Below are positions 1,434-18,386 of a DNA stretch of 18,386 nt, piece after piece. The position numbers and the translations under genes are program-made. The notes under the pieces were generated by a model that saw only the letters and a list, made by a program, of their open reading frames with translations, was not told where the DNA came from and did not search any database. Source of the stretch: an uncultured Verrucomicrobiales bacterium (lineage in GTDB: Bacteria > Verrucomicrobiota > Verrucomicrobiia > Limisphaerales > Palsa-1400); NCBI GenBank assembly GCA_903898185.1, contig CAIUEN010000050.1, forward strand, positions 1 through 18,386. The letters are read 5' to 3'. Positions within the stretch are counted from its first letter, which is position 1, and every line of letters begins with the position of its first letter.

Positions 1434-3140
1434 TCAACAACGATTCTGGATTTTATTGCTACATGAAAGAATAGTTGGAAACCAACGCTCAATCTCAAAG
1501 ACCCTTACGGCACGGAGTTGTTCGGTCGTCAGTTCCGGGGGGAGCATCACTGTGGGGCGTCTTCCCGCTGCCCCCGTCACAGTTTGCACCAGCGTGGCAC
1601 GAATTTCGGCCAGGCTCTTCATCATTTGCTGTGCCGAAGCGCTCGTGCCCAACGCCAGCTTGGCCAAGCTCACCAGCAACAGCCCCAGCACTGTGGCAAA
1701 AGTGTGCAACCGCAGCGACCCCTCGGCCCACTGGTGCGACGGCCCCCACGAAATCAGCCCGCCTTTTTTGGTCCGCCGGAAAAGTTCTTCCACGTTCCAC
1801 TGGCCCCGGAAAGCATGCACGATCCGATCGGTGCTCCAACTGTGTCGGTCGGTGCAAAGCACCCGTCGCCCCAAGCAGGTTTTCTCCAGTTGGCACCGCA
1901 AGGCGACATCGACCCGCCAGCCAAACGTGGGCCGTTGGTCGCTGCCGCCGATGGTGGTCACCACGAAACTCGACAGATGCTCCCGGGCCAGCACCTTCTG
2001 GCAGCACTCTTCCAAGCGGTCCCGGCATAGACGGCCCGCTTGAACCAAACGCTCCAGCTTGCGCAGTTCCTTTGTGGCCTTGCGCAGCGCGACCGCGATG
2101 CCCCGCTTCTGTCCCTCCAACGATTCTTCACTCTCGACCACCACCAGTGTGCGATCCAGCTCACCCACGGGTGTTCGCAACCGAGCCGCTCGGACATGTT
2201 TAAGTTTACCCGAAAGCGGCTGCATCGCTCCACACTGCGCTGCCTGTTCCAAAGCGGCTTGCGCGGCGGAGTGCCCGGTCGGCAGCGAGATGATGCTGTG
2301 GTAGCCGATCCGATCCAGATCCTGTTCCAACTGAGGGCTCCAGAATCCGCCGTCGCGCACCAGTGTGCGTTGCGGGGCGCGCTCGGCCCCGTTGTCGAGC
2401 CCTTGGTGCAGTTGCTTCAATCCCTCCAGGCAAGCCTCCATCACGCCTTGATCGGAGCCATTGCCGGAGTATGTCCGATACAACAACGGCACATGTCCGG
2501 TCTCGCTGACCAGCAGGCCCACCCCCACCACGCGCAGATCGCCGCGTTTGCTCTTGGCGTGACCGCGCTGGGAGAGTTTGCCCGATGTAAGAGTGGAAAT
2601 GTGCGTGTCGAAGTTGGTCGTGTCAAAGGCCAGCACATCGGTCGAGAGTTCGAACCGGGCAACAGCCGCCTTGGAAATCGCCACATGCGCCTTCTCCAAG
2701 GACTGCTCGTCAACCTGTTGGGCTACGCGATGAAACGCCTGGCCGCTGAAGGCCGCGCCGCGCAAACACGAGAGGCGAGGCACACTGGCATCCAAGAAGT
2801 CGCCCAAGTCGCATTTGGGTCCCGGTGAACAGACGCTCTGAATGGCCACCGCGACCACCAGTTCGCCAATGGAAGGTCCGTTTTTGGCTCCGAGGCAACC
2901 GCAGGCCCGGTCTATAAGACCAATCATATCCAACTGCTCGGCTATCCAGATCAAGGCACCAACGTCGCCGATAGCGCGCGTGCCGACGCTGCGCGTAGCG
3001 GCCAAGTCTGCGAACGGTGGAGGTGCGACCGGCCCCAGCACAACTTGACGCGCAACCGAGCGCCCACCGGCAGGGTCCCAAACAGATTGGGCGGCGATGC
3101 GGTATCGGTGGCCGTTGATTTCACGTTCAAAGATATGCAT
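1434..3140 (-). CDS. IS1634-family (IS4-related) DDE transposase, 568 aa
   Basis: The length is typical, about 570 aa. The N-terminus (MHIFEREINGHRYRIAAQSVWDP...) and the central segment VVGVGLLVSETGHVPLLYRTYSGNGSD are recalled as characteristic of IS1634-type transposases. The ORF is single and uninterrupted. The nested ORFs inside it (1456-2043, 1475-2203, 2040-2828 and others) are high-GC artefacts. Confidence 0.8.
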   Translation of the reverse strand: MHIFEREINGHRYRIAAQSVWDPAGGRSVARQVVLGPVAPPPFADLAATRSVGTRAIGDVGALIWIAEQLDMIGLIDRACGCLGAKNGPSIGELVVAVAIQSVCSPGPKCDLGDFLDASVPRLSCLRGAAFSGQAFHRVAQQVDEQSLEKAHVAISKAAVARFELSTDVLAFDTTNFDTHISTLTSGKLSQRGHAKSKRGDLRVVGVGLLVSETGHVPLLYRTYSGNGSDQGVMEACLEGLKQLHQGLDNGAERAPQRTLVRDGGFWSPQLEQDLDRIGYHSIISLPTGHSAAQAALEQAAQCGAMQPLSGKLKHVRAARLRTPVGELDRTLVVVESEESLEGQKRGIAVALRKATKELRKLERLVQAGRLCRDRLEECCQKVLAREHLSSFVVTTIGGSDQRPTFGWRVDVALRCQLEKTCLGRRVLCTDRHSWSTDRIVHAFRGQWNVEELFRRTKKGGLISWGPSHQWAEGSLRLHTFATVLGLLLVSLAKLALGTSASAQQMMKSLAEIRATLVQTVTGAAGRRPTVMLPPELTTEQLRAVRVFEIERWFPTILSCSNKIQNRC

Positions 3141-3214: not shown

Positions 3215-3387
3215 CCGTTGAGCGCGGTTTCACAAACGGCAGCCCTCAAAAATGCGAAATGCGGGCTAAACACCCAAAGAGCCATCGGGCGGGACGCCCG
3301 ATCTTTGTCACTGGCACTGGGCGCGTTGCCGCGCTGATGAAAAATCCCTCGCATAGGATTCGGTTGGTCTTCATAATCACCGAAAGT

Positions 3388-6300
3388 ATGTCGCACGCTG
3401 ACTTTGTTCATCTTCATGTTCACACCGAGTATTCGCTGCTCGATGGCGCTTGCCGCATGGACCGGCTCATGGATAAAGCGCATGAGCTGAAGTTCCCTGC
3501 CTTGGCGATAACCGATCATGGCGTGCTCTTTGGGGCCATCGATTTTTATCAGGCCGCCCGCAGCAAGGGGATCAAGCCGATCATCGGCTGCGAGGTCTAT
3601 ATCGCACGGGGAAGCCGCCTGGAGAAAAAGGCCGGTCTGGGCGGGAAAGATGGATATAATCACCTGATTCTGCTGGCCAAGGACGAGGCCGGATACAAGA
3701 ACCTGGTCAAGCTGGTTACTTTGGCGCACTTGGAGGGCTATTATTACAAGCCGCGCATCGACCGCGAAATCCTGGCCACCTACAAGGACGGCTTGGTGGC
3801 TCTCTCATCCTGTCTCAAGGGTGAAATCCCCGAGTTGATCGCCGATGACCGCCTTCCCGATGCCCGGAAAGCCATTGATTGGTACAAGCAAACGCTTGGG
3901 GCGGAGAACTTTTACCTCGAATTACAGGATCACGGCATCCCGGAGCAGGCCAAGGTGAACCGAGTTCTGATTCCGCTTGCCAAGGAATTCGGAATCAAGC
4001 TCGTCGCCACCAACGACGTTCATTACATCGAGAAAAACCACTCGCACGCCCACGATTGCCTGATTTGCATCGGCACGCAGACACAACTTGCCGACACCAA
4101 GCGGATGCACTACGCCCCCGAGCAGTTTTATCTGCGCTCGGCTGAGGAGATGAAGGCCCGCTTTCACGAGATCCCGGAGGCGGTGAGCAATACGCTGGAA
4201 GTGGCCCAGCAGTGCAATGTCGAGATTGAGTTCGGCAAACTCCATTATCCGATCTTCAGTCCACCGGAGCATTTTACGCGCGAGGGTTACCTGCGCAAAC
4301 TGGTCGCCGAAGGACTCCATTTCCGTTACGGGATGAATGTTCGGGCTGAAGGACAGGAATTCATCGTCGATGGCTTGGGAGACCCGCGCCGATTGCCAAC
4401 GTACGTTCCTGCGCCTGGAACCACGGTTCCGGAAGACCCGAAACTGGCCATGCAGGATCCCCAGGTGGCCGCCGCGATCAAGGTTGTCATCGACCGCCTT
4501 GACCTGGAAATGAAGGTAATCGAACAGACCGGCTTCATCAGCTACTTCTTGATCGTCGGCGACTTTGTTCGCTACGGTCGAAGCAAAGGCGTCACATGCG
4601 TGGCGCGCGGATCGGCGGCTGGTTCGATTGTGACTTATGTGCTGGAGATTTCGAACGTCGATCCGATTCGTTACGGGCTGCTGTTCGAACGATTCCTCAA
4701 CCCGGAACGCGTCAACCCTCCCGATATCGACATCGACTTTGCCGACGACCGCCGGGCTGACGTGATCGAATATGTGCGCGAGAAATATGGACGCGATTCG
4801 GTGGCGCAGATCGTCACCTTCGGCACAATGGGCGCCAAATCGGTTCTGCGGGATGTCGGTCGCGTCATGGGCTTGGGTTATTCCGACTGCGACCGGTTGG
4901 CCAAGATGATTCCCAACGAACTGAAGATGTCGCTGGAAAAAGCGATGGGGATGTCGCCGGACTTTAAGCAGGCTTACGAGACCGAAGAGGTCACCCATGA
5001 ACTGGTCGATACCGCCCTGGTTCTCGAAGATCTCACCCGCAACGCATCGGTTCACGCGGCCGGCGTGCTTATTGGCGATCAGCCGTTGCACAATCTTCTG
5101 CCGCTCAAAAAGGATGAGGATGGCACCATTGTCACCCAATACGCCATGGGCCCTGTCGGCGACCTCGGCCTGCTGAAGATGGACTTCCTTGGGCTCAAGA
5201 CCTTGACGGTCATCCGCAATACCTGCGATCTTGTCAAGCAGACCCAGGGAATCGACATCCCCATTGACGACCTTCCGCTCGACGACGCCAAGACCTACGA
5301 CCTTCTCAACAAGGCCAATACCATCGGTGTGTTCCAATTGGAATCTGGAGGAATGCGCGATCTCTGCAAAAAGTTCAAGATTAGCTCGGTGGAACATATC
5401 ACGGCGTTGGTGGCGCTCTATCGTCCGGGACCGATGGACCTGATCCCCGATTTCATCAAGCGCCGGCATGGCGAGGTGAAAATCGAGTATGATCATCCGC
5501 TGCTGGAGTCGATCAGCAAAGAGACCTATGGCGTGCTGATCTACCAGGAACAAGTCATGCAGGCCGCGCAGTTGCTCGCCGGCTACACGCTCGGCGGCGC
5601 TGATCTGCTGCGCCGCGCGATGGGCAAGAAGAAGATCGAGGAAATGGCCAAGCACCGTGACAAATTCGTCAAGGGAGCAGCCAAGCTCAACAATATCCAC
5701 GAGGCCAAGGCCAACCAGATTTTCGATTTGCTCGAGAAATTCGCTGGCTACGGTTTCAACAAGTCGCACGCGGCCGCCTATGCCATCGTCGCCTACCAGA
5801 CGGCTTACCTGAAGGCCAATAATCCTGTCGAGTTCCTCAGCGCCATGATGACCAACGACATGAGCGACACTGCCAAGTTGAGCATCCTGATCAACGAGGC
5901 GAAGGCGTTCGATGTCGAAGTTCTCGGCCCCGACATCAACGAAAGCGGCGTGTTTTTTACGCCCGCCAAGGTAGAGCAGGCTTCCAGCCTGCTCAGGGGA
6001 GACACGAGAGGGCTGCAGTCACCACAGTTGGAACAGGCGGGACGCGCTGTTCTACCAGAGCAGGCTTCCAGCCTGCTCGGGGGGGACGTGAAAGGGTTGC
6101 AGTCACCACAGCTTGAACAGGCGGGACGCACTGTTCTACCAGAGCAGGCTTCCAGCCTGCTCGGGGGGGACGTGAAAGGGCTGCAGTCACCACAGCTTGA
6201 ACAGGCGGGACGCACTGTTCTACCAGAGCAGGCTTCCAGCCTGCTCAGTGGGGACATGAGAGGGTTGCAGTCACCACAGTCTGAACAGGCGGGACGCGCT

Positions 6301-7398
6301 GTTCTACCAGAGCAGACTTCCAGCCTGCTCAGTCGGAACATGTCCACCGCCATCCGTTTCGGCCTTGCCGCCATCAAAGGCGTGGGCGAGGTCGCCGTGC
6401 AAAGCATTCTTGATGCCCGGAAAGCCGGTGGAAAATTCACCTCCCTTTCCGAGTTGTGCGAGCGCGTCGATGGCCGGACTGTCAATCGCAAAGTCCTCGA
6501 ATCGCTCATCAAATCCGGAGCGTGCGATTGTTTCAACGAAACCCGCGCCTCGCTTTTCGGCAAGATAGATCGCGCGCTTACGCGGGCGGCCGGGGTGATC
6601 AACGACCGGCAGCGCGGACAAGACACGTTGTTCGGCATGTTGGAAGAAACGCCCGACCGCAAGCCCGATGTTGAGAAACAGTTGCCGGAGTGGCCGCAGC
6701 ACGAACTGCTGGCGCATGAGAAAGAACTGCTGGGCTTCTATGTCAGCGGCCATCCGCTCACGCCCCTGGCACCGATCATTGAGCAATACGCGTTGCATAA
6801 AACAAACCAGCTTCCGGCGCTGCCTTCGCGCGGAATGACCCGCATCGGCGGCATGATCGCCGTCGTGCAAAAGGGGTTTTCCAAGAAAAGCAACAAACCG
6901 TATGCAATGGTGACACTGGAGGATTTGGAAGGCTCGGTGCAGATCCTCTGCATGAACGAGAACTACGACAAATATGTCGATCTCCTGGTTGTCAATAAAC
7001 CAATCCTGGTGATCGGCGAGGTCAATAATTCCGAGGACAAGCCCAAGATATTCCCACAGGAAATCATGCCTTTGGAAGATGCCCCTCGCAAATTCACCCG
7101 GCAGGTTCATTTTCGTTTGCAGACGGCGCAGATTGTTCCCGACGACCTGAATTCAGTGATCGACATTGTGGCGGCCCACCCGGGCCGATGTCCGCTGTTT
7201 CTCTGTTTCATGCGCCCGGGCGGCGAGGTTGTATTCCTGGAGACGCACGAAAAATACGGAGTCTGCCCGTCTGTGCCCCTGCAAAAAGCCGTGGACGAAC
7301 GCTACGGCGAAGGCACGTATTACGCCAGGGTGGATGCAAGCTTGCCAGAGCGGGAGAAACGCCGATGGGAGAAGAAGTCTGAAGGAAACGGTGAATAG
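3388..7398 (+). CDS. dnaE: DNA polymerase III alpha subunit (DnaE), about 1336 aa, with an in-frame repeat insertion
   Basis: The true start is the ATG at 3388 (MSHADFVHLHVHTEYSLLDGA), which matches the canonical DnaE N-terminal PHP motif. The 3097 start in the ORF track is an upstream extension overlapping the transposase start. The protein has a PHP domain, a polymerase core (GxGYSDCD..., KMDFLGLKTLT, FNKSHAAAYA), IRFGLAAIKGVGE HhH/beta-binding segments and an OB-fold C-terminus. Confidence 0.95.
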   Translation: MSHADFVHLHVHTEYSLLDGACRMDRLMDKAHELKFPALAITDHGVLFGAIDFYQAARSKGIKPIIGCEVYIARGSRLEKKAGLGGKDGYNHLILLAKDEAGYKNLVKLVTLAHLEGYYYKPRIDREILATYKDGLVALSSCLKGEIPELIADDRLPDARKAIDWYKQTLGAENFYLELQDHGIPEQAKVNRVLIPLAKEFGIKLVATNDVHYIEKNHSHAHDCLICIGTQTQLADTKRMHYAPEQFYLRSAEEMKARFHEIPEAVSNTLEVAQQCNVEIEFGKLHYPIFSPPEHFTREGYLRKLVAEGLHFRYGMNVRAEGQEFIVDGLGDPRRLPTYVPAPGTTVPEDPKLAMQDPQVAAAIKVVIDRLDLEMKVIEQTGFISYFLIVGDFVRYGRSKGVTCVARGSAAGSIVTYVLEISNVDPIRYGLLFERFLNPERVNPPDIDIDFADDRRADVIEYVREKYGRDSVAQIVTFGTMGAKSVLRDVGRVMGLGYSDCDRLAKMIPNELKMSLEKAMGMSPDFKQAYETEEVTHELVDTALVLEDLTRNASVHAAGVLIGDQPLHNLLPLKKDEDGTIVTQYAMGPVGDLGLLKMDFLGLKTLTVIRNTCDLVKQTQGIDIPIDDLPLDDAKTYDLLNKANTIGVFQLESGGMRDLCKKFKISSVEHITALVALYRPGPMDLIPDFIKRRHGEVKIEYDHPLLESISKETYGVLIYQEQVMQAAQLLAGYTLGGADLLRRAMGKKKIEEMAKHRDKFVKGAAKLNNIHEAKANQIFDLLEKFAGYGFNKSHAAAYAIVAYQTAYLKANNPVEFLSAMMTNDMSDTAKLSILINEAKAFDVEVLGPDINESGVFFTPAKVEQASSLLRGDTRGLQSPQLEQAGRAVLPEQASSLLGGDVKGLQSPQLEQAGRTVLPEQASSLLGGDVKGLQSPQLEQAGRTVLPEQASSLLSGDMRGLQSPQSEQAGRAVLPEQTSSLLSRNMSTAIRFGLAAIKGVGEVAVQSILDARKAGGKFTSLSELCERVDGRTVNRKVLESLIKSGACDCFNETRASLFGKIDRALTRAAGVINDRQRGQDTLFGMLEETPDRKPDVEKQLPEWPQHELLAHEKELLGFYVSGHPLTPLAPIIEQYALHKTNQLPALPSRGMTRIGGMIAVVQKGFSKKSNKPYAMVTLEDLEGSVQILCMNENYDKYVDLLVVNKPILVIGEVNNSEDKPKIFPQEIMPLEDAPRKFTRQVHFRLQTAQIVPDDLNSVIDIVAAHPGRCPLFLCFMRPGGEVVFLETHEKYGVCPSVPLQKAVDERYGEGTYYARVDASLPEREKRRWEKKSEGNGE
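5974..6332 (+). repeat. 84-bp tandem repeat, about 4.25 copies, in-frame inside dnaE; each unit begins with a 21-bp perfect palindrome
   Basis: Units start at 5974, 6058, 6142 and 6226, with a partial unit at 6310. The units are about 90-95% identical. The core gagcaggcttccagcctgctc is an 8-bp stem with a 5-nt loop. Each unit encodes a 28-aa module, LPEQASSLLGGDVKGLQSPQLEQAGRTV, with R/G, V/M and T/A variation. The array is inserted between DINESGVFFTPAKVEQ and NMSTAIRFGLAAIKGVGE. Confidence 0.9.
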
Positions 7399-7414: not shown

Positions 7415-7687
7415 ATGCCGCAAGCAATCATGGATCCTGAGCAAGTCCGGCGGTTTGCCGAGGAACTTAAGCGTTTTAACGCTGATCTCCAAGACCGAAT
7501 GTCGGCGTTGCAAGGGCGTTTCGCCGCGTTGGGTGATAGTTGGCAGGATCAGGAGCACAAGAAGTTTGCCGATGAATTTGTCCAAACGCTCAAGGCGATG
7601 AAGAGGTTCGTTGAGATATCCAATCAGCACACCCCTTACCTGTTGCGCAAGGCCCAGCGTATCGAAGAATATCTGAACCAACGATAA
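7415..7687 (+). CDS. small helical WXG100-like (ESAT-6/EsxA-like) protein, 90 aa, with a W-x-D variant of the WXG turn
   Basis: The ATG lies 17 nt after the dnaE stop, preceded by GGAGCGAAGAGA. The protein is about 90 aa, predicted all-helical, with a central turn LGDSWQDQ. W43-Q44-D45 sits at the same position as the W43-x-G45 turn of ESAT-6. It shares the motif DSW(Q/R)D...F...(F/Y) with the 70-aa ORF at 8404. The ORF-track 7166 start is an artefactual extension back into dnaE. Confidence 0.55.
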   Translation: MPQAIMDPEQVRRFAEELKRFNADLQDRMSALQGRFAALGDSWQDQEHKKFADEFVQTLKAMKRFVEISNQHTPYLLRKAQRIEEYLNQR

Positions 7688-7691
7688 AATC

Positions 7692-8264
7692 ATGGCCGTC
7701 GGCGCCCATGTCACATCCATCGAAGCTCTCGAATCATTTCGAGCGAATCTGATCGTTTACATCAACAAAGCCCGACCGACTTTGGAGGAAATCAGCTCGG
7801 ATGTAATGCGGACGCGGCTTTGGCTGGAGAACAACCAGCGTCTGCACTGGGAAGCCCAGTTACAGCGGCGCGCCAAGGAATTGGAGGCCGCGCGGCAAGA
7901 ACTCTTCAGCGCGGGATTGGCAAATCTGAGGGATACCACGGCTGCCGAGATCATGGCTGTTCGCCGGGCCGAACGGGCGCTTGAGGAGGCCGACAACAAG
8001 CTGCGCTTGGTCAAGAAGTGGACGCGTGAATTTGACAGCCGGACAGCCCCGGTGGCCAGGCAATTGGAAAAGCTCGCAACCATGCTGGCCAACGACCTGC
8101 CGTCGGCGGTCGCGTTCCTGTCGCAAATCATCAAGACTCTCGATGCCTACGGAGCAGGCGGATCAACGCCCGTTCTTTCCGAGGCGACGGCCACGGTCAA
8201 AACCGATCCAGCAGCAGCGAAACCGGACGAGACTGTTCCGTCTCAACCCTCGAACTTGCCATGA
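7692..8264 (+). CDS. hypothetical helical protein, 190 aa (candidate accessory or chaperone component)
   Basis: The ATG is 5 nt after the preceding stop. The protein is predicted coiled-coil/helical with a low-complexity A/T/P-rich C-terminal tail. No recognisable family. Confidence 0.55.
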   Translation: MAVGAHVTSIEALESFRANLIVYINKARPTLEEISSDVMRTRLWLENNQRLHWEAQLQRRAKELEAARQELFSAGLANLRDTTAAEIMAVRRAERALEEADNKLRLVKKWTREFDSRTAPVARQLEKLATMLANDLPSAVAFLSQIIKTLDAYGAGGSTPVLSEATATVKTDPAAAKPDETVPSQPSNLP

Positions 8265-8265
8265 G

Positions 8266-8400
8266 CAGCAATTCTCATTTTGAGCAAGGAACGGGGAAAA
8301 ACCTGGTCTGCCTGCGCACGAATTTTTCGACTCCCTTGCGGAGCCAGAGGCACCGCAACTGGCAGGCCAGAGGCCTACCCCACATAATGAGAATTGCTGT
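8266..8400 (+). repeat. Roughly 115-bp intergenic element, copy 1, bracketed by a 14-bp inverted repeat (cagcaattctcatt / aatgagaattgctg); candidate structured RNA or MITE
   Basis: About 85% identical over roughly 115 bp to 18194-18307 in the same orientation. Both copies share ttttcgactccc, gagccagaggcac and the hairpin aggccagaggcct. The inverted-repeat arms abut the upstream stop (8264) and the downstream start (8404) exactly. Confidence 0.6.
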
Positions 8401-8403
8401 GCC

Positions 8404-8616
8404 ATGAGCGTTGCCGCCAACAAAGCCAGGCTGATATCCTCCACGCGCGAGCTGGCGGCACAATGGGCGTTGACCAAGGATTCCTGGCGAGATGTCAAAT
8501 GCCTGGAATTCGAGCGCAAATACATGGAACAGCTTGTCTCCAATGTCGAAGCGGCGATGGAAGTGATTGATCAGTTGGACAAGCTTGTCAGCAAGATCAG
8601 GAGCGATTGTGAGTAG
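8404..8616 (+). CDS. small helical WXG100-like protein, 70 aa, paralogous to the 7415 ORF
   Basis: It has LTKDSWRDVKCLEFERKY, parallel to LGDSWQDQEHKKFADEF in the 7415 ORF. It is predicted helical. Its stop overlaps the GTG start of the downstream ATPase gene. Confidence 0.5.
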   Translation: MSVAANKARLISSTRELAAQWALTKDSWRDVKCLEFERKYMEQLVSNVEAAMEVIDQLDKLVSKIRSDCE

Positions 8617-11600
8617 CGCATTATCGGTGAGTCAGGTATTGGAGTGTCTGGAACGCCTCCGGGATGCGGCGCGCGACTGCGCCGTGCGCGAACGGGATCT
8701 CAACCAGAAGCGTCAGTCGCGTCTCAATCTCCTGGCTCAGAATCGCCAGGCGGCCACCGATGCGCAGAATGTTCAATTAGCGGAACAGCTTGACTTGGTT
8801 CGCGCCTGGTTTGAAGCAGCGAAGACAACCCCAAGAAACCATCGCGAACGCCGACGGATTCGCATCCATGAAGCTTGGAAGAACAGCCGAAAACAGGCAT
8901 CTGAGCGGATCGAAGCGCAAGAAGGACGCCGCAAATATAAACTGCAAACCGAAACCATGCAGGCCGCCCGCACTCGCAAAAATGATCTGGAGGCCGCCGA
9001 AAAAGCGCGCAACGATTTCAAAGCCGAACTGGAATTGGAAAATCAAACGCTGGCGCAGCTTGAGAATACCGCGAGAGAGGCGTTTCAAGGCTACGCCAAA
9101 TTTTCCGGGATGCTCAACTACACCGCGCCGGACCTTGCTCCAGGAAGCGATGAATATCAACTGATTGTCACGTTGCGGGAGTCGCTTGACAACAGTCGCA
9201 GCGGAATCGAACGGTTCCAACGCTATTTTCTGCCACGTCTTTTCAGGCTCACTCCACTCTTGGTTCCGCTGGCGCTGACCCTCGGCGCTGTGCCGCTGTT
9301 GCGGTCATTGCAGATGGTTGTTTACGGTTGGACTACAGCCATCGTATTGGTTGGATCGCTCTTTGCGGTTGGGTTTGTCCTGCATCACATGGGCAAGCGT
9401 CAGGGGCTGAGGCTTGCCGGCGAGATATCCCGGGCGCTGGTGCGGGCGCGCAAATTGCGCGATGGCTGTCTTGCCCATTGCGACGCGCGTTACACGCGGG
9501 AAACCGAGCGGATTGAAGCCGAACATCGATCTCGCAACGAGTCAATCACTCAGCAGTGGGGCCAGGCCGTGAACGATTCAAAGCAGATGACAGAGCCGGC
9601 GCTGGCCAGAATGGATGAAAAGAAAGCGCGCGCGACCACCCGAATGGAACGGCTGTTTCAAGCCGCCGTTGAAGCCCTGGCTCGCGAGCAATCCCGGCGA
9701 GTGGAGAGGATCCAACGCGACATACAGGATTACCTCGATGAATTGGAGCGGACCTGCGAGAATAGAGAAACGGCATTGCGCAATGAGATGGAGTCGCAAT
9801 GGCAGACGCTGGAGAGAGATTGGAAGACGGCTGTAAAACCGCTCTTTGCCACCATTGTGAGCGCTCAAAGTCAGGCTGCGAAATTCCCTGAATGGAACCG
9901 TTCAACCGTTCAAAGCTGGACGCCGCCGGCAGTCTTTGAGCATGCGGCCAAATTCGCAAGGGTCGTTGTCGATGTCGAAAAACTGGCGGATGCGCTGCCG
10001 ACCGACCCACGACTTGCTTTGCCGGGGCCCTGTCATTTTGAGGTGCCGCTCCTGCTGACGTTTCCGCAACAGGGCTCGGTCTTGTTTGAAACCAGCGATG
10101 CGTCCACCGAAGGTGTCGTCGCATGCGTCAACAACATCATCCTGCGTCTGCTGTTCGAAGCCCCGCCAGGACGGCTGAACTTTACGATTTTTGATCCAGT
10201 CGGACTGGGCCAGAATTTTGCGGGTGTCATGCATCTGGCCGATTACGAAGATCACCTGATCAACAGCCGCATCTGGACACAGCCCGCGCAATTCGAGCAG
10301 AAGCTGGCCGATCTCAACGAGCACATGGAGAAGGTCATCCAGATGTACCTGCGCAATGAATACGCGACCATCGCCGAATACAACGAGCAGGCGGGCAACA
10401 TTGCCGAGAAATATCATTTTCTCGTCGTTGCCAATTTTCCGTCCGGGTTTACCGAGACAGCGGCCCTGCGCTTGTTGAGCATTGCGGCCTCGGGAGCGCG
10501 TTGCGGCGTTTATACGCTGATTCACTGGGATCATCGCCAGCCCAGCCCGTCCGATTTCGTGCCGGATGAATTGATCAAGGGGAGCATTTGTCTCACTGTC
10601 AAAGGCAGTCGTTTTCTGCTTTCGCGCGGACAGCTTCCCGGCACGAGCATCGTTCCGGATCTGGCTCCCGAGCCCGACCTGGCAATCGAGCTGATTCATA
10701 AAATTGGCCTGAGCAGCCGCGATTCCAACCGCGTGGAGGTGCCATTCTCCCACGTTGCGCCACCGGACGACGCGCTCTGGAATCTGGAGACCACGTCGGA
10801 ACTCCGGGTGGCGTTTGGACGCACTGGCGCGACCAAGTTGCAGTACTTGGCCATCGGCAAGGGCACCCGCCAGCATGCTCTGTTGGCCGGCAAAACCGGG
10901 TCGGGTAAATCGACGCTCTTGCACGTTATCATCACCAACCTGGCGCTCTGGTGCAGCCCCGAACAGGTCGAGTTCTATCTGGTCGATTTCAAGAAGGGGG
11001 TTGAATTCAAGTGTTATGCCACCAAACGCCTGCCGCATGCGCGGGTGGTGGCCATTGAGAGCGACCGAGAGTTCGGCCTGAGCGTTCTGCAACGAGTCGA
11101 TGCCGAACTCAAGCGGCGCGGCGATCTTTTTCGCAACCTGGGCGTTCAGGATCTTGCCGGTTACAAACGGGCGGGTGGCGTCGAATCACTTCCCCGGACG
11201 CTGCTGATCATTGACGAATTTCAGGAGTTCTTTGTCGAGGATGACAAGATTTCGCAATCGGCGTCGCTGCTGCTGGACCGGATTGCGCGCCAAGGCCGCG
11301 CATTTGGGGTTCACGCCATTCTTGGATCTCAGACGCTCGGTGGGGCATATACGATGGCTCGCACAACTTTAGGGCAAATGGTCATTCGCATTGCCTTGCA
11401 ATGCAACGAGGCGGATTCCTACCTCATCATGGACGAGAACAACTCCGCGCCGCGCCTGCTCTCGCGTCCAGGAGAAGGCATTTACAATGACTCCGCTGGC
11501 GTCATGGAAGGGAACAGCCCGTTTCAAACCGTGTGGCTGTCGGACGAGTGTCGTGACATGTGGCTGGACAAAGTGCGCTATCGGGCTGACCAGGCACAAC

Positions 11601-12493
11601 CGAAAGCTTACCCAGGGCCGATTGTGTTCGAAGGCGACGCGCCGGCGGACATTCGCGAAAACCCGTTGCTTCAGTCCCTTCTGGAGACTCCGGTTGTCCG
11701 CCCGCCCGCTGCTGCGCGCGCCTGGCTGGGCGCTCCCAATTCGATCAAAGGCCCGACAGAGGTCACGTTTCAACGTCAGAGCGGGAACAACCTCCTTATT
11801 ATAGGCCAGCAGGACGAGGCTGTCCTGGCTATTTTTACCACAACATTGGTGGCGCTGGCAGCGCAACATCCAGGCGACACCGCCCGGTTTATCGTAGTTG
11901 ATGCCTCGGCACCCGGATCGCTCCATCGCGACTACGTTGAACGCCTTGTCCAGTCGATCCCTCGCCAGGTTTCGCTGGCGCGGAACAGCGATCTTCCGGA
12001 AATCATGAGTAGGCTGGCGTCTGACCTCAAGAAATCTGCTGAGCATGACAACAAGGCAACGCCATCGACGTATTTGCTGATTCACGGTCTGCAAAAATTC
12101 TCCAAACTGCGTTACGAGGAGGACTTTGGCTTCTCAAGCGATCCGGCCATCGCAGCCAATCCGTCCGTGGCGCTCAACACATTGATCTGCGAGGGCGCCA
12201 GCCACGGTATTCACGTCATTGCCTCATGCGACACCTACAATAACGTCGTCCGGTTTCTGAGCCGGAAAGCGCTGGGCGAATTTGAAATGCGGGCGCTCTT
12301 CCAGATGAGCGCCAACGATTCCGCAAGTTTGATTGACAATCCACGAGCGGGCAACCTGGGTCTGCACCGTGCGATTTTCTCCAATCAACACGAGGGATAC
12401 CTGGAGGTCTTCCGTCCATATGCGTTGCCGTCGGCGCAGTGGATTGAGGAAGTAACGCGGGCGATGGATAATCGTCGCGTTATTTTGTACTGA
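8609..12493 (+). CDS. Membrane-anchored FtsK/SpoIIIE-family ATPase with three tandem FtsK-like domains (EssC/EccC-like T7SS ATPase candidate), about 1294 aa
   Basis: The preferred start is GTG at 8609 with AGGAG 6-7 nt upstream, overlapping the upstream stop. The TTG at 8567 in the ORF track is less likely. The N-terminal roughly 210 aa is a charged coiled coil. It is followed by two TM helices (LTPLLVPLALTLGAVPLLRSL and VVYGWTTAIVLVGSLFAVGFVL, about nt 9245-9383). The central domain has Walker A HALLAGKTGSGKSTLLHVI (about nt 10888-10914) and Walker B TLLIIDEFQEF (about nt 11201-11230). The flanking domains are degenerate but clearly paralogous: LLLTFPQQGSVLFETSDASTEG...NFTIFDPVG and NLLIIGQQDEAVLAIF...RFIVVDAS...TYLLIHGLQKF. 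The nested antisense ORF 9902-11092 is an artefact. Confidence 0.8.
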   Translation: MSSALSVSQVLECLERLRDAARDCAVRERDLNQKRQSRLNLLAQNRQAATDAQNVQLAEQLDLVRAWFEAAKTTPRNHRERRRIRIHEAWKNSRKQASERIEAQEGRRKYKLQTETMQAARTRKNDLEAAEKARNDFKAELELENQTLAQLENTAREAFQGYAKFSGMLNYTAPDLAPGSDEYQLIVTLRESLDNSRSGIERFQRYFLPRLFRLTPLLVPLALTLGAVPLLRSLQMVVYGWTTAIVLVGSLFAVGFVLHHMGKRQGLRLAGEISRALVRARKLRDGCLAHCDARYTRETERIEAEHRSRNESITQQWGQAVNDSKQMTEPALARMDEKKARATTRMERLFQAAVEALAREQSRRVERIQRDIQDYLDELERTCENRETALRNEMESQWQTLERDWKTAVKPLFATIVSAQSQAAKFPEWNRSTVQSWTPPAVFEHAAKFARVVVDVEKLADALPTDPRLALPGPCHFEVPLLLTFPQQGSVLFETSDASTEGVVACVNNIILRLLFEAPPGRLNFTIFDPVGLGQNFAGVMHLADYEDHLINSRIWTQPAQFEQKLADLNEHMEKVIQMYLRNEYATIAEYNEQAGNIAEKYHFLVVANFPSGFTETAALRLLSIAASGARCGVYTLIHWDHRQPSPSDFVPDELIKGSICLTVKGSRFLLSRGQLPGTSIVPDLAPEPDLAIELIHKIGLSSRDSNRVEVPFSHVAPPDDALWNLETTSELRVAFGRTGATKLQYLAIGKGTRQHALLAGKTGSGKSTLLHVIITNLALWCSPEQVEFYLVDFKKGVEFKCYATKRLPHARVVAIESDREFGLSVLQRVDAELKRRGDLFRNLGVQDLAGYKRAGGVESLPRTLLIIDEFQEFFVEDDKISQSASLLLDRIARQGRAFGVHAILGSQTLGGAYTMARTTLGQMVIRIALQCNEADSYLIMDENNSAPRLLSRPGEGIYNDSAGVMEGNSPFQTVWLSDECRDMWLDKVRYRADQAQPKAYPGPIVFEGDAPADIRENPLLQSLLETPVVRPPAAARAWLGAPNSIKGPTEVTFQRQSGNNLLIIGQQDEAVLAIFTTTLVALAAQHPGDTARFIVVDASAPGSLHRDYVERLVQSIPRQVSLARNSDLPEIMSRLASDLKKSAEHDNKATPSTYLLIHGLQKFSKLRYEEDFGFSSDPAIAANPSVALNTLICEGASHGIHVIASCDTYNNVVRFLSRKALGEFEMRALFQMSANDSASLIDNPRAGNLGLHRAIFSNQHEGYLEVFRPYALPSAQWIEEVTRAMDNRRVILY

Positions 12494-14647: not shown

Positions 14648-14761
14648 TGGGAGCAGGAGGATTGAATCATGCCTATCCGGTTGCTTGCCAATCATCCACG
14701 CCTTGAATTGTGTGGAATTGAGCATTGTGCCACGCCTTCAGCCGACGCCAACGGCGTCCTT

Positions 14762-14963
14762 CATACCAGCCTGGGGCAACGCCCCAGGTATGGTGCCACG
14801 GACGATCCAAGCGCCAAAGGCGCGATTCATATTCGGCGCGGCATGGTGGAACGATGCGCACAAAGAACGCTTCACCAAATGAATCGCGCCTTCAGCGCTT
14901 GCGGCTCTCCATATCCCATACCTGGGGCGTTGCCCCAGGCTGATATGAATCGCGCCTTTGGCG
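14762..14963. repeat. Cluster of GC-rich palindromic (REP-like) elements in the floT to beta-CA intergenic region
   Basis: Hairpin A at 14762-14793 (cataccagCCTGGGGCaaCGCCCCAGGtatgg). Its reverse-complement copy A' is at 14916-14947 (ccataCCTGGGGCGttGCCCCAGGctgatatg). Motif B at 14811-14832 (gcgccaaaggcgcgattcatat) has reverse-complement copies at 14942-14963 and, imperfectly, at 14877-14899. The ORFs predicted across this region (14669-15040, 14725-14943, 14738-15046) are probably spurious. Confidence 0.55.
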
Positions 14964-15014
14964 CTGGGCGGGCCATACAACACGAAAATCAACCTGTTTT
15001 GACCAAAATCACTT

Positions 15015-18140: not shown

Positions 18141-18193
18141 AATCCCAGTATGCGTCTGAAACCTCCCAGCGTCCAGCGGAGGCAGTCAGCAAT

Positions 18194-18307
18194 CAGCAAT
18201 TCTCATTATGAGCAAGAAAGTGGAAAAACGCTGTTCTGTCCACGTACGGAGTTTTCGACTCCCGGCGGAGCCAGAGGCACTGCAACCGGCAGGCCAGAGG
18301 CCTACCC
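18194..18307 (+). repeat. Roughly 115-bp intergenic element, copy 2, upstream of copA on the opposite strand
   Basis: Same element as 8266-8380, in the same orientation and about 85% identical. The left arm is partly duplicated (cagcaatcagcaattctcatt). The right inverted-repeat arm is absent, and similarity ends at cctaccc. Confidence 0.6.
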
Positions 18308-18386
18308 TAGGGTGTTGAATTGAGGAGAAAGAGTTCATGCATCAAGAGTTCCTTGAATTCCATGGGTTTTATCTTACAATCTGAAC

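Follow-up and report, generated by a model that had tools for sequence, protein, structure and literature searches.

The window, that is the whole stretch of 18,386 nucleotides which was analysed, carries in this order genes for HsdM, an IS1634-family transposase, DnaE (dnaE), a WXG100 protein, a protein of 190 amino acids, the small repeat element described here, a protein of 70 amino acids, an FtsK/SpoIIIE ATPase, NfeD, a flotillin, a carbonic anhydrase and, on the minus strand, copA (Table 1). The cluster from 7415 to 12493 is compact, with tight or overlapping gene junctions, and resembles a type VII secretion locus. Despite this cluster, sibling contigs of the same organism carry the genes for the flagellar L-ring and P-ring. 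DnaE shares about 80% identity with proteins named Verrucomicrobiota, Verrucomicrobiae, Limisphaerales or Pedosphaera, and these relatives together with the L-ring and P-ring genes identify the host as an uncultured diderm Verrucomicrobium. The dnaE gene contains, between the finger and helix-hairpin-helix domains, four to five in-frame tandem units of 84 bp (28 aa; 5973-6392), one more in the window than in the sibling contig L092; the DnaE proteins of relatives are about 100 aa shorter (about 1210-1225 aa versus 1316 aa). Contigs and loci used for comparison are given L numbers where they have to be told apart.

Table 1. Position of the genes and sequence features of the window.
Feature	Position	Strand	Remarks
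HsdM gene			N-terminal part, runs off the start of the window
IS1634-family transposase gene	1434-3140 (element to 3156)	-	568 aa; only complete transposase gene in the window
WXG100 protein	7415-7687		downstream of dnaE
190-aa gene	7692-8264	+	no Pfam or NCBIfam match; in WXG100 / FtsK-SpoIIIE (type VII secretion-like) cluster
Left target-site duplication of copy 1, TGCCATGAG	8257-8265		holds TGA stop of the 190-aa gene and duplicated ATG; identical 9-mer at 8400-8408
48-codon "relay" frame	8261-8407	+	from duplicated ATG (8261) to TGA (8405-8407) overlapping the ATG of the 70-aa gene; open through the whole element
MITE copy 1	8266-8399	+	134 bp; polymorphic among strains; 87-93% identical to 19 other family members
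Left terminal inverted repeat, CAGCAATTCTCATTTTG	8266-8282	+	first 14 bases invariant in 20 of 20 aligned copies
Inner hairpin 1, GCGGAGCC-AGA-GGCACCGC	8338-8356	+	A/A mismatch in stem; no compensatory changes, mutations only break pairs
Inner hairpin 2 with CCAC, GGCAGGCC-AGA-GGCCTACC-CCAC	8361-8383	+	REP-like; also alone in other genomes
Right terminal inverted repeat, CATAATGAGAATTGCTG	8383-8399	+	
Right target-site duplication of copy 1, TGCCATGAG	8400-8408		holds ATG (8404) of the 70-aa gene
70-aa gene	8404-8616	+	no Pfam or NCBIfam match; overlaps the EssC-like ATPase gene
FtsK/SpoIIIE ATPase, EccC/EssC-like domains	8609-12493		as called on sibling contigs
Left target-site duplication of copy 2, GTCAGCAAT	18185-18193		same 9-mer past the intact right arm in L092/L095 and L129
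MITE copy 2	18194-18309	+	ends after CCCTA in the window strain; right arm absent
Start of second, unrelated inverted-repeat element, GGGTGTTGAATTGA...	18310-18386	+	interrupts copy 2 at TA; assembly ends inside

Two related copies of the element are present in the window, both in plus orientation (86% identity over 116 nt, E = 4e-31; blastn, 8266-8380 against 18194-18307), which confirms the duplication reported in an earlier note on this DNA. The terminal 17-mer occurs three times in the window, against 0.09 occurrences expected from shuffled sequences. Copy 1 had been described as an intergenic cassette bounded by 14-bp inverted repeats, its left arm starting 2 nt after the upstream stop and its right arm ending 3 nt before the downstream ATG. 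The inverted repeats are indeed there, but the arms measure 17 nt each (16 of the 17 positions complementary) and both distances need correction, since 1 base separates the TGA stop (8262-8264) of the 190-aa gene from the left arm, and 4 nt separate the right arm from the ATG of the 70-aa gene. Missed at that time was a perfect 9-bp direct repeat, TGCCATGAG, on both sides of copy 1. The longest open frame within copy 1 has 44 codons, and the element, with 134 bp, has no room for a transposase gene. Its GC content is 0.545 compared to 0.574 for the window, and the AT-richness which is usual, though not obligatory, for MITEs is thus absent.

In order to compare the insertion site between strains, sixteen contigs of the same population were gathered from public assemblies via the exact 190-aa protein and then via further proteins of the same 90% cluster; the sample names on the sibling contigs belong to the BUCK21-1 series. 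Identities to the window ranged from 98.6 to 100%. The site was filled in twelve contigs (the window and eleven others), where the element sits between two copies of TGCCATGAG, and empty in four (L092/L095, L093, L097 and L129/L130), which read CTTGCCATGAGCGTTGCC, with a single copy of the 9-mer and no element. In these empty alleles the 190-aa gene ends, and the 70-aa gene starts, within a shared ATGA. Over about 10 kb the empty-site strains share 99.3-99.7% identity with the window. Such a pattern of empty and filled sites is characteristic of transposition in which 9 bp of the target site are duplicated, and the element moved recently. The filled allele of L122 (98.6%) is more divergent from the window than the empty alleles are, from which it follows that the polymorphism is old, has been recombined, or stems in part from precise loss of the element. 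Copy 1 would accordingly have inserted into the ATGA overlap of the 190-aa and 70-aa genes of the WXG100/EssC-like operon in a part of this freshwater Verrucomicrobiota population, the left TGCCATGAG copy retaining the upstream stop and the right copy the downstream start, with both reading frames left intact. The appearance of a perfect cassette is explained by the 9-bp duplication including the ATGA, and selection for an intergenic RNA is not required to account for it. The locus may serve as a natural example of a transposon landing on an ATGA overlap with neither gene destroyed, and the presence or absence of the element can be used as a strain marker in lake metagenomes.

A metagenome scan with GCAATTCTCATTWTGAGCAAG returned thirty-one loci, twenty-seven of which are on separate contigs of one JGI lake sample. 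From these, twenty-one distinct full-length members of the family were extracted, mostly of 132-136 bp. Six full-length members measure 172-174 bp, their inner hairpins being separated by an additional hairpin module of about 38 nt; there are also one 110-bp copy with an internal deletion and one 256-bp composite. The mean pairwise identity is 0.91 (20 aligned of the 21 full-length members). The flanks are unrelated at every locus of the family, the copies lie mostly between open reading frames, and they occur in both orientations relative to their neighbours. In twelve of the twenty-one members the flanking 9-mers match in at least 8 of 9 positions, or in 7 of 7 at a contig end (binomial P about 6e-43, with the chance rate taken as 1e-4 per element). 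The remaining nine are without a recognisable duplication, L111 showing instead an 11/12 match of 12 bp. The duplication is of 9 and not of 10 bp because the next base is not consistently C.

The earlier note had also considered that there might be no further copies and that the two in the window could derive from a local duplication. A segmental duplication of non-mobile DNA would agree with only two copies being visible within the window. It is refuted by the further full-length copies, at least twenty-one, on unrelated contigs, the separate 9-bp duplication at each of the two window copies, and the identities, which are 86-87% between the window copies and up to 93% between copy 1 and copies elsewhere.

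The same terminal repeats also bound elements with unrelated interiors (L095 4305-4488, L095 5199-5430, L099 and L103). Two other MITE subfamilies with these terminal repeats are built around a module of about 45 nt, GAATATCCAATATCGAACAAGGAATKTCCAATAATGAAGT (L095 4370-4420 and about 5290-5340), which is also found reversed and without terminal repeats at 1335-1378 of the window, next to the IS1634-family element. The composite (L118 2049-2304) consists of a shortened copy of the long variant joined head-to-tail to a full short copy; as a single 9-bp duplication, AATTTTGCG, surrounds the pair, it seems to have moved or arisen as a unit.

Copy 2 lies 54 nt upstream of the copA ATG (18140), copA being on the opposite strand. 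The earlier note had placed it correctly upstream of copA and without its right arm; of the limits then given (18194-18307) the start stands and the end is moved to 18309. In L092/L095 (L095 5433-5565) and L129 copy 2 is complete, with 133 bp, the right arm CATAATGAGAATTGCTG and the 9-bp duplication GTCAGCAAT. There it is nested in the left end of a further element (L095 5199-5430), which shares its terminal repeats, CAGCAATCCTCATGATG ... CAAAATGAGAATTGCTG, but not its interior. A third one with these repeats is situated 700 bp away (L095 4305-4488). In the window, L091 and L096, copy 2 breaks off after CCCTA (18309), and GGGTGTTGAATTGAGG follows directly. The right arm is missing in these contigs because a second inverted-repeat element has landed in copy 2 at TA, where the assemblies break. 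Copy 2 is an older insertion, fixed in all strains seen.

The second family of small elements has the ends GGGTGTTGAATTGA and TCAATTCAACACCC and was encountered in the window and in L107, L113, L125, L126 and L127. The only complete copy, of about 130 bp, is that of L127, between TA dinucleotides within CTA..TAG. The CCCTA junction of the first MITE family with the second element recurs in the window, L107 and L113, with related joins in L125 and L126, and the interiors of the second family vary among copies. Contigs of several assemblies end inside an element of this family, for which reason a longer, possibly autonomous version may exist. Elements which share inverted repeats around different interiors, and which are themselves targets of a second element, are useful for repeat libraries and assembly, since contigs end at them.

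We interpret the element as a MITE, that is a non-coding DNA transposon of 133-134 bp (with a variant of 172-174 bp) which is bounded by 17-bp inverted repeats and mobilised in trans by a DDE-type transposase making 9-bp staggered cuts, and assign to this reading a probability of roughly 0.93. Inverted repeats, duplications, many dispersed copies and presence or absence between near-identical strains are observed directly; the element combines small size, absence of a transposase gene, terminal inverted repeats, a duplication of fixed length, dispersed copies and an empty and filled site. The mobile element had been put forward in the earlier note as an alternative, to be recognised by target-site duplications and variable flanks, and it is this alternative which the copies bear out.

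Criteria for bacterial MITEs were taken from Minnick 2024 (PMC10969869, section 2.1) and Adams et al. 2019 (PMC6382973). The element resembles other bacterial MITEs in being shorter than 500 bp and non-coding, in having inverted repeats within the range of 4-30 bp and transcripts predicted to form a long hairpin, in the direct repeats which are present in younger copies and decay with age, and in the many dispersed, mostly intergenic copies with size variants. It differs from them in not being AT-rich and in that a parent IS was not found in about 150 kb of related DNA. A literature search for the repeat strings retrieved no paper and no similarity to a named MITE family. By description and not by sequence, it is close to MITEAba12 of Acinetobacter, an element of 113 bp. 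ISAba12, by which MITEAba12 is mobilised, has inverted repeats of 16 bp and makes duplications of 9 bp (PMC6382973). Size and inverted-repeat length are similar, the duplication is of 9 bp in both cases and both were found via insertion polymorphism, but MITEAba12 has a known co-resident parent with matching repeats, while none was found for the element described here. [quoted passage not shown] 2008, via PMC10969869) is summarised in that review as recently active and inserted in an operon, with the structure of the operon undisturbed according to the title of the original paper. Going by this summary, Chunjie shares with our element the recent activity, the position within an operon, the dozens of further copies, the conserved inverted repeats with direct repeats and the several size classes, and differs in its length of 178-235 bp and its phylum. 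A further difference is that here the insertion is exactly on an ATGA overlap, so that the duplication regenerates both signals. The element is of a well-documented, ordinary kind, and the insertion on a gene overlap, the nested modular repeats and the population polymorphism are tidy and unsurprising to a specialist. What the analysis adds is a MITE family, young and active, from uncultured Verrucomicrobiota of fresh water; this phylum has no occurrence in the 2024 review of prokaryotic MITEs (PMC10969869).

Mobilisation would have occurred in trans, probably by a DDE transposase recognising the 17-bp ends and making 9-bp staggered cuts. No autonomous IS with matching (CAGCAATTCTCATT-type) terminal repeats was found in about 150 kb of related DNA. 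The IS1634-family element of the window, just upstream of dnaE, has 17-bp inverted repeats, TGCTACATGAAAGAATA and TATTCTTTCACGTAGCA, the frame of its transposase extending 23 nt past the left repeat. It was rejected as a partner, the repeats being unrelated to the MITE ends; IS1634 elements also make shorter duplications. In L092 the contig extends to about 130 nt upstream of the called start of dnaE, short of the region of this element. An ISL3-family transposase fragment in L114 was rejected likewise, with no MITE repeats around it. No transposase follows the lone MITE ends of L109 and L116, and a scan of viral contigs with the terminal 17-mer gave four chance matches. Duplications of 9 bp are known, in ISfinder terms, from parts of IS4, IS1, ISAs1, IS256 and ISLre2. 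They are also made by the IS903 group of IS5, to which ISAba12 belongs (PMC6382973).

The first proposal for copy 1 had been a conserved RNA element of the operon, and its folding seems at first sight to agree with this. The RNA of copy 1 (plus strand) folds strongly, with -59.9 kcal/mol (z = -4.7), which speaks for a dedicated cis-acting RNA of the secretion operon, serving as a processing or stability signal or as a coupling barrier by means of a 14-17 bp stem around a structured core. A secondary effect at the RNA level is plausible as well, given that RNases process transcripts with Correia and ERIC MITEs (PMC10969869). As the origin of the element such an RNA is very improbable. Near-identical strains (99.3-99.7%) do without it and have directly overlapping genes, and the dozens of copies at unrelated loci stand in both orientations relative to their neighbours. 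Copy 2 as cut in the window folds no better than shuffled sequences (z = -0.2 and -1.0), a result which fits the stability of copy 1 coming mostly from the pairing of arm with arm. With permissive thresholds Rfam was run on the whole window and each of the two copies, and neither copy had a match at the gathering score (best E: copy 1, 8.5; copy 2, 3.3-8.3), so the search for a known RNA family proposed earlier came back empty. The check for covariation, also proposed there, was mostly negative. The terminal stem has no compensatory pair across twenty copies and its mutations only break pairing, the same holds for hairpin 1, and the covariation term of RNAalifold is +0.24, i.e. no net support. 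From these alignments the terminal repeats behave like protein-binding sites, as is expected for transposase-binding ends. For annotation this means that a false lead for a regulatory RNA is removed.

Hairpin 2 is the only part of the element which covaries. Among the twenty copies one of its pairs is G-C in nine, A-T in nine and broken in two, and a second is C-G in nineteen and T-A in one. This suggests that the interior is partly under a structural constraint of its own; the compensatory pairs could go back to one or two ancestral events or to exchange with solo copies. A genome-collection scan was performed with the hairpin GGCAGGCCAGAGGCCTRCC; the scan was permissive, and among the matches listed many are ordinary terminator-like palindromes. 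At least ninety loci with the hairpin were found in other genomes, none of them with the whole element among the matches listed. The 3' flank CYAC is present in 35 of the 90 hairpin matches listed, against about 0.7 expected. Among the matches listed, many of the loci with hairpin and CYAC belong to Pirellulaceae, Planctomycetaceae, Bryobacterales, other Acidobacteriota and Verrucomicrobiota MAGs, often with several per genome. The 23-mer GGCAGGCCAGAGGCCT(A/G)CC + C(C/T)AC occurs solo in MAGs of Planctomycetota, Acidobacteriota and Verrucomicrobiota (loci L003-L090, among the matches listed); its conservation across phyla is odd, and no transposase is linked to it. In the same lake metagenome a double-hairpin unit exists outside MITEs, composed of a variable stem, NAACY, GGCAGRYC-AGA-GRYCTGCC and CCAC. 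In two-hairpin units of L108, L110 and L115 the first stem changes in sequence with its pairing kept.

These hairpins bring the element close to the REP/BIME class. Its interior is made of two G+C-rich hairpins with a conserved loop, the second of which has a GTGG head on the minus strand (GTGG followed by GGTAGGCC-TCT-GGCCTGCC) and recurs alone in many genomes. REPs reportedly consist of a GTRG head followed by a palindrome. The whole element might on these grounds be taken as a REP/BIME unit spread by a RAYT (REP-associated tyrosine transposase), with the inner hairpins active and the outer repeats incidental; the same 19-23 nt standing alone in MAGs of Planctomycetota, Acidobacteriota and Verrucomicrobiota, often in many copies per genome (among the matches listed), the solo double hairpins of the same metagenome and the compensatory changes of hairpin 2 would fit such an origin. 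We regard it as very improbable, as REPs have neither terminal inverted repeats nor target duplications, while the mobile unit is bounded by repeats of 17 bp and makes duplications of 9 bp. Single-strand Y1 transposases are not known to move units bounded by inverted repeats with 9-bp duplications. Nor was a RAYT gene found linked to the element. A frame in L126, at first taken as IS200/RAYT-like, was dropped as a candidate, having no match in Pfam or NCBIfam; by tblastn the L126 fragment had no other convincing match among the loci compared. With the element read as a MITE, its interior looks like a REP-like module carried as cargo.

As to the operon, the direct ATGA coupling would in filled alleles be replaced by 143 nt able to form a long stem, which ends 4 nt before the start codon, and the likeliest effect on expression would be that of a strong stem-loop between two genes of the operon mRNA. 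Correia elements (CREE) of Neisseria have a TA duplication and repeats of about 26 bp. The element described here differs in duplicating 9 bp. Correia elements are also small inverted-repeat elements inside transcription units, whose paired ends are cut by RNase III and which can alter expression (PMC10969869); taken as a model they make an RNA-level side effect of our element on its operon possible by analogy. A candidate outward promoter, CTGGCA-18-CATAAT (8359-8388), was found once compared to 0.5 times expected from shuffled sequences, which is no excess.

All eight filled alleles which are complete, that of 98.6% identity among them, have the relay frame intact and with an identical peptide; within the family the frame is open only in the 134-bp variants. 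Judging from the frame, ribosomes finishing the 190-aa gene would restart at the duplicated ATG and translate the relay frame while melting the stem of the element, and would then terminate at the second ATGA and begin again with the 70-aa gene. The relay frame may in this way keep the two genes translationally coupled, and may be the reason why the insertion persists in many samples. Chance is also possible, as we estimate that roughly one frame in three is in phase and that a random 44-codon frame is open with a chance of about 12%. The broader proposal, that the insertion is tolerated and common because coupling is rebuilt by the relay, and that the double hairpin is a self-standing structured module carried as cargo by this inverted-repeat family, is doubtful. 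Filled and empty alleles provide a ready test of how important translational coupling is in an operon of the type VII secretion kind.

Other hairpins of the window deserve mention. The hairpin ATCGGGCGGGACGCCCGAT (3284-3302), upstream of dnaE, resembles the GCCGGGCGGGACGCCCGGC units which are found beside the GGCAGGCC hairpin in Limisphaerales/Verrucomicrobiota MAGs (L001 and L039). Between the flotillin and carbonic anhydrase genes there is a long inverted-repeat cluster (14746-14968) with arms of 48 nt which are 90% complementary, and inside it a match to the Rfam family Acido-Lenti-1 (14921-14965) with 39.8 bits, compared to a gathering score of 37.
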